This document shows positions 54,200 through 58,173 of a stretch of 64,000 nt of DNA, piece after piece. Location of the stretch: positions 3,520,001 through 3,584,000 of the forward strand of contig CAWAIF010000003.1 of assembly GCA_963782055.1 (NCBI GenBank), given 5' to 3'. The DNA comes from an uncultured delta proteobacterium (GTDB taxonomy: Bacteria > Myxococcota_A > Polyangia > Polyangiales > Polyangiaceae). A model generated the notes under the pieces. It worked only from the letters and a program-made list of their open reading frames with translations. It searched no databases and was not told the origin of the DNA. Numbering within the stretch: position 1 is the first letter of the stretch; every line of letters starts with the position of its first letter. The translations under genes and the position numbers were made by a program.

Positions 54200-55117
54200 T
54201 CAGTAGCCGCTCTGCGGCTCGGTCCAGCCGTCCGCCATCGCCGCCCAGGACATGGTCACGGTCGAGCGGGCGAACGCGAGCCGTCCCGCCGCGTCCACCA
54301 GGATGAGCCCGCCCGGGCTGCCGGTGCGGTCGAGCATCATCTGGATGGCCGCGCGCGCCGCCTCCTCGGGGTGCAGCGCCTGGCGCATCCACTCCACCGC
54401 GGCCTTGCCGAGACACACGCGCATGATGGCCTCCCCCACGCCCGTCGCCGACACCGCGCCGGCCTGGTCGTCGGCGTAGGTCCCCGCGCCGAGCACCGGG
54501 GTGTCGCCCACACGGCCCGCGCGCTTGAAGAAGGTGCCGCCGGTGCTGGTGGCCGACGCGACCCCGCCGCGCGCGTCTCGCGCCACCGCCCCCACCGTGC
54601 CGCCCGCCCAGCCGTGGGCTGGGGCGTCCCTGTCGCGCTCGAAGCGCTCGCGCACGCGCGGGGGGATCATCGCCGCCTCGTCGGCGCGCACGAAGCCGTG
54701 CTCCAGGGCGAAGCGCTCCGCGCCCTGCCCCGCGTAGAGGACGTGGGCGCCGTCGTCCAGCGCCGCCCGCGCGATGGTGATGGGATGGAGAAAGGGCGGG
54801 AGCGCGCACACCGCCCCCGCGCGCAGTCCCGTACCCTCCATCACCGCGGCGTCCAGCTCGACGTGGCCGTCGCGCGTGAGGGCCGCGCCGGTGCCGGCGT
54901 TGAAGCGCGGATCGTCCTCCAGCACCTCCACCGCGCGCTGGGCCGCGTCGAGCGCGCTCCCGCCGCGGGCGAGCAGCTCACCCCCGGCGCGCACGGCGGC
55001 GGCGCACCCCCCGGCATGCAGCACGCGCGAGGCCTCCGGCACGTTGCCCGCCCCGCCGTGCACGAGGATGGACCAGCCGGTGACCTCCAAGCCGCGCGAG
55101 GCGGTCAGCTTGTCCAT
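54200..55117 (-). CDS. Isoaspartyl peptidase / L-asparaginase (Ntn hydrolase)
   Basis: LVHGGAG, LEDDPRFNAG, GTVGAVA, ATSTGG, GRVGDTP. Confidence 0.93.
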   Translation of the reverse strand: MDKLTASRGLEVTGWSILVHGGAGNVPEASRVLHAGGCAAAVRAGGELLARGGSALDAAQRAVEVLEDDPRFNAGTGAALTRDGHVELDAAVMEGTGLRAGAVCALPPFLHPITIARAALDDGAHVLYAGQGAERFALEHGFVRADEAAMIPPRVRERFERDRDAPAHGWAGGTVGAVARDARGGVASATSTGGTFFKRAGRVGDTPVLGAGTYADDQAGAVSATGVGEAIMRVCLGKAAVEWMRQALHPEEAARAAIQMMLDRTGSPGGLILVDAAGRLAFARSTVTMSWAAMADGWTEPQSGY

Positions 55118-55851
55118 GCCGGAGCACGATAGCGAATCGCCGCGACGCCGAGGAGCGCAAGCAGCGGCAGCGTGGCGAGCCAGGCCGGGGCGCCGCCCGC
55201 GGCGGCGGCGTGCAGGAGCACGATGCAGGCGCCAGCGGCGAGCCCGGCGGCCCCGATCGCCCGGCCCGCCCTCTCGAAGGCGGCGCGGGCGCCGAGCGCC
55301 GGCAGGGCGAGCGCGGCGAGCGCGACGACGAGCGCCGCCGAGGCGCGCCCCCCGGCAGGCAGCGGGGCCGACGGGATCGCCGCCGCCGCGACGCGCGAGA
55401 GCGTGCCGTCCTCGTCGATCCGCACGCCGCGCGAGCGGTCCACGAAGCCGGCGTCCTGCGCGACGACGTCGTCGGAGACGACACGCGGGAAGAAGGTGCT
55501 CACGTCCGCGCCGGACGGCACCGCGAGCACCGCCGCCGCGATCATGCCCGCGCACGCCCCGCCCGCCACCGCCGCTTGCGCGTTCTGGGCGAAGCTGCGG
55601 CCGATCGCGGCGAGGGCGAGCAGCTCGCCGCGACGCGCCGCCGTGCGCAGGGTCACGTACGTCGCCACCGCACCGCAGAGCGGGAGCACCGGCACCGCGC
55701 GCGCCACGCGCGTCGCCCACGCCACCCCCCCCTCGTCGGTCGCCCCGGAGGCCAGGCACGTCACCACGAAGAGCGCGGCCGCGAGTCCCAGCGCGCGGGC
55801 GAAGACGCGCACGTCCCACGCGGTGAGGACCGGGGCGGCGCGCGCGGGCAT
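55105..55851 (-). CDS. Membrane protein with partial LptF/LptG-like similarity
   Basis: LPLCGAVAT...RRGELLALAAIGRS resembles the LptF/G coupling motif; shorter than canonical. Confidence 0.55.
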   Translation of the reverse strand: MPARAAPVLTAWDVRVFARALGLAAALFVVTCLASGATDEGGVAWATRVARAVPVLPLCGAVATYVTLRTAARRGELLALAAIGRSFAQNAQAAVAGGACAGMIAAAVLAVPSGADVSTFFPRVVSDDVVAQDAGFVDRSRGVRIDEDGTLSRVAAAAIPSAPLPAGGRASAALVVALAALALPALGARAAFERAGRAIGAAGLAAGACIVLLHAAAAGGAPAWLATLPLLALLGVAAIRYRAPAWTS

Positions 55852-56015
55852 GGCCCAGGATGCCGCGTTTCGCGGGGGCTTGGGTAGCGGTTCCAGCTCA
55901 GCCGGTCGCGGGCGGCCCTTTCAGGTTGTCGCGGGACGGTCGTCGGTGTGCAGGATGGCACCCGGACCGTCGCTCCGAAGCTCTCCGCCCGCCTCGTGGC
56001 GCGGGCTCCGGGTCG

Positions 56016-56024
56016 TGTTACATT
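56016..56024 (+). promoter_or_regulatory. Putative extended -10 promoter
   Basis: TGTTACATT (TGn-TACATT) just upstream of the structured region. Confidence 0.5.
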
Positions 56025-56030
56025 CGAAGC

Positions 56031-56542
56031 ATGACGCCGAGCGCGGGCAGCTGCGAACCAGCTCCCGGAATGGTCCGGCAGGGAGATTGCCTCGTCGAGC
56101 TCCGGCTCGAAGGCGCACCTCCACGCGCGCGCGGCGACGGCAAGGCGCGGGCTCCCAACCCGCGGCCCATGAAGGAAACGCTCGTGGAGGCGGTCGCGAT
56201 CTTCGAGGCCGACCCCCGAGTGCCGGCGCGTCCGGAGGAGGTATACAATCATGCATAGTACCCGTGGCCCCAACCTGGATGGGCTGACGCCGTAGCTCGT
56301 GTGCGTGTCCGGTTCGCGTCCCTCTCGAGAGGGCGCGAGACCTCCCTCCGTGTGAACGAAGGTGGTCGAGCGGTCCGCAGAGCGCGGACCCTCTCGGACG
56401 TGCGTACGGCCCCGGGGTTCCATGAGGTTGCCGGGCACCGAGCCCGGCGTTCGGCCTCATGCAACCGGGTGGCCTGGTCGGCTTCCAGTTAGGTGGCCGG
56501 GATGGCCCGGGTGGCGCTCGTCACCCGGGCCATTCTTTATTT
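56031..56542 (+). ncRNA. Candidate large structured RNA of unknown family
   Basis: About ten consecutive stem-loops between a putative promoter and an intrinsic terminator; no convincing long CDS. Confidence 0.45.
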
Positions 56543-56543
56543 T
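56502..56543 (+). terminator. Rho-independent terminator
   Basis: ATGGCCCGGGTGGCG-CT-CGTCACCCGGGCCAT hairpin followed by TCTTTATTTT. Confidence 0.85.
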
Positions 56544-57891
56544 GTGGCGGGCGAGGGGGCGCCGAAGTACCCCTAGCGTTGCTCTGCGGGACTAACTCAG
56601 TTGGTAGAGTGCCAGCTTCCCAAGCTGGATGTCGCGGGTTCGAATCCCGTGTCCCGCTCATAGTTTCATGTACTTGGGCGCCGTTCGGACGTTTCCCGGA
56701 CGATTCGTTTCCGCCACCTCCCGCACCGCCAGCGTCGGGCGCGATGAGCGATGCCGGCAGCGGGCCGAAGGGCTGGCCAACGTCGCCGTGCCCCACCGCT
56801 TCCGCTTCGGCGATGTAGCGCTGCGTGGTCGCCGTGTCCGCGTGTCCGAGTCGCGTTTGGATCTGCAGCTCGCGCGCGCCCCCAATCGCAAGCCACGTTG
56901 CGAACGTGTGGCGCAGGTCGTGGAAGCTCAGGGGGCGCCGGTGCTCGTCGGCGGCGTGTAGCTCCTGGCGCGTCACCTTGGCGAGCTCCAGGTGCTCGCG
57001 CATCCGGCCGGCGCGGGTCGCTGTCTTCTCGTTCGCAGGCGTCTCGAGCAACGTCGCTTCCGCGTCGCGCCCTTCGACGAGCGCCTCGAGCAGCGGAAGG
57101 AGGTTCGGCTCGATGGGGACGCGGCGAGCCTTCCGCCCCTTGGTGCTCTTGGTGCCCCCCGTCGCCCGATCGTGGGCGTGGTGCACGCTGATGTAGCCAC
57201 CGTCCAGGACGACGGCGCCGACGCGCAGCACGGCGAGCTCGCCCCGGCGTAGGCCAGTGTAGAGCGCCAGCGCGTAGAGCACGCGGGCCGATCGCGGCAC
57301 GTCTTCGCAGGCCAGGAGCTTCGCGGCCTCACGAGGGAACAGGTAGGCCGACTGCCGCTCTTCCCCAGCGTCCGGGCCTCGCACGCCGTCGACGGGGTTG
57401 CGCTCGAGCACGCGCAGCTCGAGCCGCTTGGAGTGCGTCGCATCGTCGAACATCTTCGAGAGGGTGCCGAAGACGTTGGCGGCCGTCTTCGCGGCGATCT
57501 CCCCTGCCCTGACTCGTTCGTCGAGGCGAGCCACGACGCGTTCCACGTCCTCGCGCGACACCGCCGTCATGACCAGATCCCGCATGATCGGCAGGATGTG
57601 GAATCGCAGGTGCGCGCTCGCGTCCTTGGGATCGCGCCGAGTCTTGAGCCACTTTTCGGTCCACACGTCGACGGTGTTCCCCGTCAGGGCCCCCCGCTTC
57701 GGCTCCGGGAGCTTCTCCCAGCCTTCCGCTTCCGCCTGCCTCGTGAGCCGCACCGCTTCGGCCCGCGCGTCCTGCTCGGACACGCCCACGGACAAGCACA
57801 CGCTGTTGCCGCGCGAGCCGTCCGGCAACGTGACGCGTATGTCCCAGTGGTTCCCGTGCCAGAAGGCGGAGCCCGTGCGGGTGCGCGGCAT
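56521..57891 (-). CDS. int: Tyrosine integrase; ORF continues antisense through tRNA-Gly
   Basis: TGLRRGEL (R), TKGRK (K), FHDLRHT (HxxR), LGHAD (H), TTQRY (Y). Confidence 0.93.
   Translation of the reverse strand: MPRTRTGSAFWHGNHWDIRVTLPDGSRGNSVCLSVGVSEQDARAEAVRLTRQAEAEGWEKLPEPKRGALTGNTVDVWTEKWLKTRRDPKDASAHLRFHILPIMRDLVMTAVSREDVERVVARLDERVRAGEIAAKTAANVFGTLSKMFDDATHSKRLELRVLERNPVDGVRGPDAGEERQSAYLFPREAAKLLACEDVPRSARVLYALALYTGLRRGELAVLRVGAVVLDGGYISVHHAHDRATGGTKSTKGRKARRVPIEPNLLPLLEALVEGRDAEATLLETPANEKTATRAGRMREHLELAKVTRQELHAADEHRRPLSFHDLRHTFATWLAIGGARELQIQTRLGHADTATTQRYIAEAEAVGHGDVGQPFGPLPASLIAPDAGGAGGGGNESSGKRPNGAQVHETMSGTRDSNPRHPAWEAGTLPTELVPQSNARGTSAPPRPPQNKEWPG
56586..56658 (+). tRNA. tRNA-Gly (CCC), probable integration target
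   Basis: GCGGGACTAACTCAGTTGGTAGAGTGCCAGCTTCCCAAGCTGGATGTCGCGGGTTCGAATCCCGTGTCCCGCT folds as a cloverleaf. Confidence 0.96.
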
Positions 57892-57894
57892 GGC

Positions 57895-58173
57895 CTACGC
57901 CTTCCCTTCCGCCGCCGCGTGCGGCTCGCCTTGGTGGGCGGCGCACTCGGCGCACCGGCCCGCGTCGTCACTCTCGCTAGCGTGCGTGGCGGCGCCGCAG
58001 CCGGGGCAGCGGTCCAGGTCGAAGGTGCGCCCGCTCGCCACGTCCTCGCGGAGTGAGGCAAGCAAGACGCGCATCGGCGCCAGCGCGGGCGCCTCGGCCA
58101 GCGCGGCGATCGTCGCGTCAAGGACGGCCAGCACCCGAGCGCGCTCCTGACGCACGGCCTCGCGGGCGTTCAC
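57895..58173 (-). CDS. Hypothetical element protein with two CxxC pairs
   Basis: CPGC...CAEC; start overlaps the upstream stop. Confidence 0.6.
   Translation of the reverse strand: MNAREAVRQERARVLAVLDATIAALAEAPALAPMRVLLASLREDVASGRTFDLDRCPGCGAATHASESDDAGRCAECAAHQGEPHAAAEGKA

Follow-up and report, generated by a model that had tools for sequence, protein, structure and literature searches.

The window is a stretch of 64,000 nt from the genome of an uncultured member of the Polyangiaceae, and has a G+C content of 72%. A 735-nt spacer in this window contains the gene of an RNA of about 510 nt. The spacer is bordered by a divergent ORF, which has no Pfam match, and the RNA is followed by a gene for tRNA-Gly(CCC). 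The original prediction, made from the sequence alone, described a large structured RNA at this position, independently transcribed and either noncoding or dual-function, with an extended -10 box, a chain of hairpins and a strong terminator; all of the listed elements are present in the sequence. At the centre of the RNA lies a short open reading frame, the mini-ORF. The features of the locus are collected in Table 1.

Table 1. Coordinates, within the window, of the RNA, its elements and its neighbours.
Feature	Position	Strand	Remarks
ORF of 248 codons	55105-55851	-	divergent, borders the spacer
Extended -10 box, TGTTACATT	56016-56024	+	form TGnTAnnnT, found across loci
RNA (about 510 nt)	56031-56543	+	5' end inferred within a few nt; 3' end is the terminator T-run
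P1	56036-42/56129-35	+	compensatory changes at 7 of 7 pairs
P2, GGGCAGCTG/CAGCTCCC	56045-48/56062-65	+	compensatory changes at 3 of 4 pairs
P3	56066-69/56074-77	+	compensatory changes at 3 of 4 pairs
P4, GGAG..CTCC	56078-84/56120-26	+	compensatory changes at 7 of 7 pairs
P5 hairpin, CGCGGG/CCCGCG	56145-48/56162-65	+	changes on both sides at 4 of 4 pairs; 83% paired
Conserved GGAAAC joiner and P6	56174-56222	+	AAC of the joiner invariant in 59 seed sequences
P6, CTCG..CGAG	56179-84/56217-22	+	98.8% paired; double changes at 4 of 6 pairs
P8 hairpin, CCGG/CCGG	56223-27/56231-35	+	94% paired; adjoins the ribosome-binding site
Shine-Dalgarno (SD) sequence, GGAGGAGG	56234-56241	+	9 nt before the AUG
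Mini-ORF, MHSTRGPNLDGLTP	56251-56295	+	AUG at 56251, 14 codons and TAG (56293-95); kept across the family
P9, 5' strand (ORF nt 15-28)	56265-56278	+	by homology; duplex -18.6 kcal/mol
Lineage-specific insertion	56296-56484	+	three strong hairpins, inside P9; mostly missing in same-genus relatives
P9, 3' strand	56485-56498	+	putative in the window
Intrinsic terminator	56501-56543	+	16-bp G+C-rich hairpin and T-run; sequence kept family-wide
tRNA-Gly(CCC)	56586-56659	+	neighbour outside the RNA; tRNA detection and Rfam scan

Comparison with shuffled sequences, which had been suggested as a check on the predicted structure, gave z = -5.7 for the + strand, with none of 100 shuffles folding as well. 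The - strand gives z = -5.3, so the strand cannot be told by folding energy alone. The + strand is assigned from the promoter, the terminator, the covariance model and the transcript contigs.

The RNA belongs to an uncatalogued family that is spread over the Polyangiales. A cmscan search of Rfam 15 with positions 55000-58000, on both strands and up to E = 1, returned only the tRNA (56586-56658), and ARAGORN found no tmRNA in the window. The tmRNA (RF00023, 179.5 bits), RNase P RNA (RF00010, 271.4 bits) and 6S RNA (RF00013, 52.2 bits) of this genome lie elsewhere. On these negative searches, together with the true copies at other positions, we rejected a divergent tmRNA, RNase P or 6S RNA; they agree with the original prediction, which had set aside RNase P, tmRNA, SRP and 6S RNA. 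The RNA is single-copy in its own genome, both by DNA search and by search with a structural model. A literature search gave no description of it, although one may exist in subscription journals.

The transcription unit

The extended -10 box is conserved in relatives in the form TGnTAnnnT. In 40 of 47 distinct genome loci the box precedes the AUG of the mini-ORF by 183-286 nt; an enlarged set has it at 178-249 nt in 115 distinct loci. The free positions of the box differ among loci and it therefore fits the expectation for a real -10 element. By reading, GGGAAGA near -35 is common to many lineages, and is missing from the genus of the window. The match to the covariance model and the transcript contigs begin 6-20 nt downstream of the box. 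At the other end of the unit the predicted terminator is real: a G+C-rich hairpin and T-run close it in 114 distinct loci, with an unusually conserved sequence. The terminator helix is 98.8% paired, with double changes at four of its 12 pairs.

Transcripts of the locus are present in soil metatranscriptomes. Eight small runs from two studies contained 56-61% of the words sampled from positions 56000-56700; DNA runs with only a small share of these words are counted neither towards absence nor towards habitat. Four of these runs were compared with positions 55700-56900, and each holds a single contig of 492-495 nt that spans 56036/38/39-56530, has no loose ends and carries one mismatch (A to G at 56247). 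Two of the four gave identical figures and may be one data set filed twice, which leaves about three distinct assemblies. The contigs end 5-13 nt from the predicted start and terminator, and mark the ends of the RNA approximately. The uncovered flanks of the same stretch serve as a silent control, where parts without cover are not counted as absence: no contig in the four runs covers the upstream gene or the spacer, and the tRNA is covered only by contigs of other organisms, with four mismatches and loose ends. No contig in the runs compared crosses the terminator.

The tmRNA of the same organism was found in the same runs with 0-1 mismatches. Word depth in these runs is 8-33 for the RNA, 108-274 for the tmRNA and 3.6 for a neighbouring mRNA-like contig; contig depth is a rough measure, used here only to call the RNA abundant. 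A transcript of roughly the predicted length is thus present, and the locus encodes a discrete, independently transcribed RNA with its own promoter and terminator. The claim of a large, structured and independently transcribed RNA is borne out by the Rfam negatives, the conserved promoter and terminator and the contig ends, as well as by the covariation described below.

A covarying 5' domain and its distribution

We aligned 59 compact 5' regions and identified helices with RNAalifold and one hand correction. The resulting covariance model of the 5' half comprises 43 pairs over 208 positions. Each of the 100 sources searched gave a full-length match, the window among them at 56030-56280 (91.8 bits, E = 2e-25). 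Standard pairs fill 90.3% of cells in the paired columns, as against 76.7% with shuffled partners (0 of 500 shuffles as high) and 32-42% when the partners are slid by 1-3 columns. Both sides have changed at 35 of the 43 pairs. The covariation score is 0.375, compared with 0.153 for shuffled and 0.03-0.06 for slid partners. These figures come from an alignment that had itself been fitted to the model, and shuffling takes no account of relatedness; even so, a real structure is indicated by the slid controls and by the variety of pair types at single positions. RNAalifold applied to the raw alignment of 47 sequences recovers P6, P8 and fragments only.

The 5' domain of about 200 nt consists of a four-way junction and four more helices that covary, and it ends in the ribosome-binding site and AUG. 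P1 to P4 form the four-way junction (56036-56135, with coordinates from the model alignment). P6 surrounds a variable hairpin, P7. P8 carries little covariation because it is almost invariant, and one same-genus relative has a compensated variant of it. Four of the hairpins that had been listed from the sequence correspond to the covarying P2, P4, P5 and P6. The other three, at ~56316-56336, 56372-56390 and 56421-56461, are lineage-specific: they appear in the minimum-energy fold, and same-genus relatives have gaps in their place.

The length of the RNA varies between lineages. The terminator follows the AUG after 71 to ~340 nt, depending on the family member, and the predicted lengths of 70 folded sequences range from 294 to 556 nt, with a median of ~445.

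A DNA search of 41 related genomes found the core of the RNA in 13, with each of the six remaining species of the genus among them. The loci inspected within the genus share one gene order: membrane-protein gene, RNA, tRNA-Gly. We also searched with a pattern made from the ribosome-binding site and the first ORF codons, the most conserved piece in relatives. This gave 56 hits in a one-genome-per-species collection, 54 of them in records labelled Polyangiaceae, Polyangiales, Myxococcales or similar, among them the cultured strain Minicystis rosea DSM 24000; the two hits in Firmicutes are due to chance. The same pattern gave 116 hits in metagenome contigs.

Of 151 genomes sampled from the order Polyangiales, 77 carry the RNA according to the covariance model, that of the window included. 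The order-wide model search gave 58 of 114 good-quality genomes and 43 of 77 genera, usually with one copy per genome. At the family level it is present in 9 of 9, 13 of 15 and 16 of 23 genomes in the rich families and in 0 of 23 in another; the stricter filters and incomplete assemblies mean that these absences are to be read as 'not found'. When the whole phylum was sampled, 17 of 151 genomes gave a model match, and the matches outside the Polyangiales came from a single family of another class (three genomes).

The mini-ORF and helix P9

The ribosome-binding site (56234-56241) and the 14-codon ORF (56251-56295) were absent from the original prediction, and its hedge that the RNA might be dual-function is given substance by their conservation at the centre of the RNA. 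The search pattern fixes the first ten bases of the ORF, so that their invariance is an effect of ascertainment, and the SD sequence is also part of the pattern. Among 174 pattern hits, 147 have ORFs of 14 codons, 12 of 13 and one of 15. One further ORF has 27 codons, one has seven and one has 32, and 11 are left open, eight of these (by reading) cut by a contig end. By reading, the remaining three open ORFs and the 32-codon ORF are chance hits.

In the 119 distinct ORFs of 14 codons the stop codon may be TAG, TAA or TGA, with free variation in the three preceding codons and in the bases that follow. This set was selected for its length and cannot itself show avoidance of TGG; among the unselected ORFs only two run longer. 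Constraint at the level of nucleotides falls on codon positions 2-7, and 110 of the 119 have T as the third base of codon 5. A weak G+C periodicity resembling that of codons is seen over codons 12-14. The middle of the ORF always contains a Gly codon, and codon 11 is often GGG.

The ORF is also present where the pattern played no part. In all 20 loci from distant families that were found by structure alone, a start codon preceded by an SD-like GGAGG or GGGAGG opens an ORF of 14-24 codons; in four of the 20 the start is ambiguous between GTG and an ATG two codons later. In two genomes of the other class the domain is followed by GGAGGAGG and an ATG; the frames that begin there have 14 and 12 codons and encode peptides unrelated to that of the window. 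Where the start is clear the SD-to-AUG spacing is 5-9 nt. The ORF has 12-16 codons in most lineages and up to 24 in a few. Comparison of the 12-16-residue peptides showed no conservation between lineages beyond the mid-ORF Gly and the positions fixed by pairing. The existence and length of the ORF are thus conserved and its product is not, a pattern typical of regulatory translation.

At the family level codons 5-12 of the ORF pair with the segment directly upstream of the terminator, the pairing starting at about base 14 of the ORF. This long-range helix, P9, encloses the stop codon and a lineage-specific insertion of 0 to ~250 nt. Codons 5-7 are conserved as nucleotides because of this pairing. 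Duplexes between the ORF and the tail average -29.9 kcal/mol, compared with -24.3 kcal/mol for shuffled tails, and cognate pairs of ORF and 3' segment beat non-cognate pairs (median rank 0.29, compared with 0.58 for a reversed decoy). The cognate signal is moderate, with median ranks of 0.21-0.29. In a permutation test anchored on ORF bases 14-21, in which only the extension over bases 22-37 was tested, the cognate energy sum of 22 clade representatives was matched by one of 5000 permutations; anchoring worked for 95 of 114 loci, and several representatives, including the window, were probably mis-anchored. In a plain MAFFT alignment of 28 diverse sequences the 13 pairs of P9 are 85.7% paired, with double changes at eight. 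P9 and the terminator taken jointly are 92.3% paired; shuffled partners give 86.9%, with none of 500 shuffles as high, and slid partners give 34-56%. Predicted folds of family members likewise pair the ORF with the 3' part.

In the window itself we infer P9 and do not predict it. The minimum-energy fold of the window lacks the helix and pairs the ORF with the region of the ribosome-binding site instead, and a fold forced to keep P9 lies 5.8 kcal/mol above the minimum. A second candidate partner in the window, at 56456-56482, gives -16.8 kcal/mol. We rejected sequestering of the ribosome-binding site by the pyrimidine run of the ORF: it is seen in the window's minimum-energy fold, yet in only one of 75 family members, and the sequestering duplex is no better than with a shuffled ORF (-12.7 compared with -11.9 kcal/mol).

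The predicted folds also bear on access to the start codon. The stretch from AUG to +12 is the least paired of the RNA, with a paired probability of 0.47 compared with 0.67 overall. The SD sequence, at 0.64, is about as paired as the remaining RNA (0.67).

Function and comparison with known RNAs

The anatomy of the RNA predicts a direct coupling between translation and RNA conformation. We tentatively favour, with slightly less than even confidence, a translation-gated riboregulator in which ribosomes on the 14-codon mini-ORF open P9 and thereby switch the 3' half of the RNA; such a molecule would be a dual-function type of RNA. The first four codons would be single-stranded, and since the stretch from AUG to +12 is the least structured, a 30S subunit could load without melting P9. 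An elongating ribosome would have to unwind the helix. Ribosome traffic or stalling would then make the RNA alternate between a closed, untranslated form and an open form that is translated or stalled, so that it could act as a sensor of translation, with the peptide probably a by-product. The open form could make the 3' strand or the insertion available to a pairing partner or a protein, alter the stability of the RNA or affect termination. Several observations count against a translation-gated switch: the nucleotide-level constraint on codons 2-7 is explainable by RNA pairing alone, P9 is missing from the minimum-energy fold of the window, the SD sequence is predicted to be about as paired as the other parts of the RNA, the cognate signal for P9 is moderate, and the covariation shuffles ignore relatedness.

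It is unlikely that the RNA is untranslated and acts only in trans, its SD-AUG and ORF being motifs at the RNA level such as a 30S decoy or a protein-binding site. The transcript is abundant, discrete and stable-looking, the early codons are conserved as nucleotides and not as peptide, the ORF is embedded in a helix, and many of its codons have T or A in third position despite a genomic G+C content of 72%, all of which this reading would explain. It does not explain why the position of the stop is kept while the three stop codons interchange and the neighbouring positions vary freely, or why a short in-frame ORF survives indels and complete sequence turnover across families and classes with the SD-to-AUG spacing held within its narrow range.

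A leader-peptide attenuator of the trp type is quite unlikely. Codons 5-12 would be region 1, the 3' strand of P9 region 2 and the two arms of the terminator regions 3 and 4; a stalled ribosome would free region 2 to pair with the 5' arm of the terminator, with read-through into tRNA-Gly(CCC) or another downstream gene. The 1:2 and 3:4 pairings are those supported above as P9 and terminator. In 82% of loci GGGCC could pair with GGCCC to give 2:3, and GGCCC is found in region 2 in five of six loci of a clade whose terminator arm starts with GGGCC. The 2:3 fold is, however, no stabler than with shuffled upstream sequence (-17.6 compared with -18.1 kcal/mol). An antiterminator is possible, at a level indistinguishable from chance and with a hint of co-variation in one clade. 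An attenuator would also have no need of a covarying 200-nt 5' domain, and no contig in the runs compared bridges the terminator.

The downstream genes bear on the attenuator in both directions. Among 84 loci with enough flank, 53 have tRNA-Gly(CCC) on the same strand 1-122 nt past the terminator (median 53), and some of these gaps are too short for a full promoter; by reading, however, in many loci the tRNA has a TTGACA box of its own. The other 31 loci have no downstream tRNA and no common downstream gene, although one clade has a lipoprotein gene. No pathway genes were found after the RNA in the downstream neighbourhoods. The Gly codon that is always present in mid-ORF would suit a tRNA-Gly target, but the GGG codon does not track the tRNA, being found in 38 of 53 loci with it and 20 of 31 without. 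For the same reason, autoregulation through a GGG codon that senses tRNA-Gly(CCC) finds no support.

It is improbable that the RNA is the mRNA of a functional 14-residue peptide, with the 5' domain as a riboswitch-like or protein-binding leader that sets the amount of peptide. The strong ribosome-binding site, the conserved length of the ORF and the weak periodicity in codons 12-14 would fit, as would the aptamer-like 5' domain, a multi-helix junction with conserved joiners that ends at the SD sequence. The peptide is nevertheless unconserved: MHSTRGPNLDGLTP and the distant peptides of 12-16 residues share at most the mid-ORF Gly, and the conserved residues are those fixed by P9 pairing. No processing, export or sensing gene conserved nearby was found.

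Finally, a protein gene in the 75-codon frame at 56031-56258, or chance hairpins in a G+C-rich spacer, can be dismissed almost entirely: the frame has in its favour an ATG where the transcript is predicted to start and a weak frame signal in G+C, but same-genus gaps are not multiples of three and the frame is therefore not kept, its third-position G+C is only 0.72-0.85 as against 0.95 in the flanking genes, no conserved long ORF was seen in relatives, conservation follows base pairing and not the 75-codon frame (the contrast that had been proposed for distinguishing an RNA from a coding sequence), and covariation and transcript data exclude chance hairpins.

Several known classes of RNA resemble this one in part. 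Dual-function small RNAs include RNAIII/hld, SgrS/SgrT, SR1/SR1P and Spot 42, which encodes the 15-residue SpfP; their peptides are conserved and functional, and a separate base-pairing region is known. Like them, the RNA described here is independent, structured and abundant, with its own terminator and an internal small ORF with a ribosome-binding site. Unlike in these RNAs, the peptide is free to vary and the ORF is one strand of a long-range helix. They have no sequence or Rfam relation to the family.

The leader-peptide attenuators trpL, hisL and pheL, and Salmonella mgtA with mgtL, where a short ORF is embedded in a long leader, share with the RNA an ORF of about 14 codons whose translation would compete with a helix before an intrinsic terminator, and regions 1 to 4 follow one another in the same order. 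In contrast to attenuators, the RNA has no tandem regulatory codons (one or two Gly codons), no constant downstream operon and no demonstrable antiterminator; it has a long covarying 5' domain, and its terminated product is an abundant RNA.

tmRNA is likewise a structured RNA of 300-550 nt, single-copy, lineage-wide and stable-looking, with an internal frame of ~10-14 codons flanked by structure. Unlike tmRNA, the RNA has no tRNA-like domain and no CCA end, and its frame starts with an SD sequence and AUG, not with a resume codon.

Translational riboswitches also have a conserved multi-helix domain that ends in a hairpin beside the ribosome-binding site. Here, in contrast, the 'regulated gene' would be a 14-codon ORF followed by a terminator, and there is no Rfam riboswitch match. 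Unlike the loops of the CsrB/RsmZ sponges, those of P3 and P4 are variable and carry no GGA; on inspection of the alignment GGA occurs only in the joiner and the SD sequence. T-box-like binding of tRNA by the P3 loop was rejected for the variability of that loop (AUGG, UUGG, AUCC, AUAA and others).

Large structured RNAs that are order-wide, highly expressed and without an assigned function are rare finds. Earlier large RNAs such as tmRNA, 6S, OLE and ROOL/GOLLD each opened a field. A broader reading, possible if doubtful, is that the family is a new class of abundant 'housekeeping' RNA with the ribosome as its ligand, in which every translation round or stall on the 14 codons would open the long-range helix and the ratio of open to closed forms would report translational capacity. 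Were that so, and it is equally doubtful, this would be the second stable RNA with a built-in frame after tmRNA, here with canonical initiation.

A mini-ORF that is conserved in length and free in sequence, and that forms half of a covarying long-range helix, is unusual and testable. Polyangiales myxobacteria are abundant soil predators, and the presence of the RNA in the cultured Minicystis rosea DSM 24000 makes knock-outs, Ribo-seq and structure probing feasible.

Genes flanking the RNA

The RNA and its neighbouring tRNA-Gly(CCC) lie on the forward strand.

Protein-coding genes around the RNA and tRNA-Gly(CCC)
Feature	Position in window	Strand	Remarks
Asparaginase_2 family protein	54200-55132	-	upstream neighbour of the RNA
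248-codon hydrophobic ORF	55105-55851	-	upstream neighbour of the RNA
tyrosine integrase	within 56671-58173	-	Pfam Phage_integrase, E = 2e-21
92-codon ORF	within 56671-58173	-	next after the integrase; sub-threshold match to Phage_GP58

The hydrophobic ORF belongs to no Pfam family, and its synteny with the RNA is kept within the genus. On the other side, the integrase gene immediately adjoins the 3' end of tRNA-Gly(CCC). The stretch that holds the integrase and the 92-codon ORF resembles a phage or island that has integrated with tRNA-Gly(CCC) as its attachment site.

In one clade the tRNA is absent, and the gene directly downstream of the RNA is a conserved lipoprotein-like ORF whose product has a signal peptide and a cysteine (loci L050, L065 and L157; at L035 the ORF is inverted).

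Possible promoter motif and occurrence in another class

Many of the RNA loci (for example L029, L051 and L078) have in common the motif GGGAAGA, which differs from the usual TTGACA and is located approximately 16-18 nt 5' of the -10 box. A specific sigma factor or regulator could recognise it. The genus of the window lacks this motif.

The 5' domain and the ribosome-binding site are also present outside the order, at two loci in another class of the phylum (L222 and L223, genomes G265 and G256). The mini-ORFs at these loci have 14 and 12 codons, and the peptides they encode are unrelated to that of the window. At one of the two, the next gene, judged by eye only, starts like a TetR-type regulator.

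Sequence matches and transcript differences

A G+C-rich stretch of 27-28 nt in the P4/P1 region (56124-56150) occurs at one further place in the genome of the window, with 96% identity (G000:C3:1342173-1342200); the resemblance is probably fortuitous, arising from a simple GC repeat.

At position 56247, in the spacer that separates the ribosome-binding site from the mini-ORF's AUG, the genome has A and all four metatranscriptome contigs have G, which is most simply explained as a strain difference. In the soil metatranscriptome runs X2 and X5, contigs extend by 18 T's past the 3' end of the genome's tmRNA (L021:1501, reverse strand), equivalent on the RNA strand to an A-tail. Either the tmRNA is polyadenylated or the tail was added during preparation of the library.
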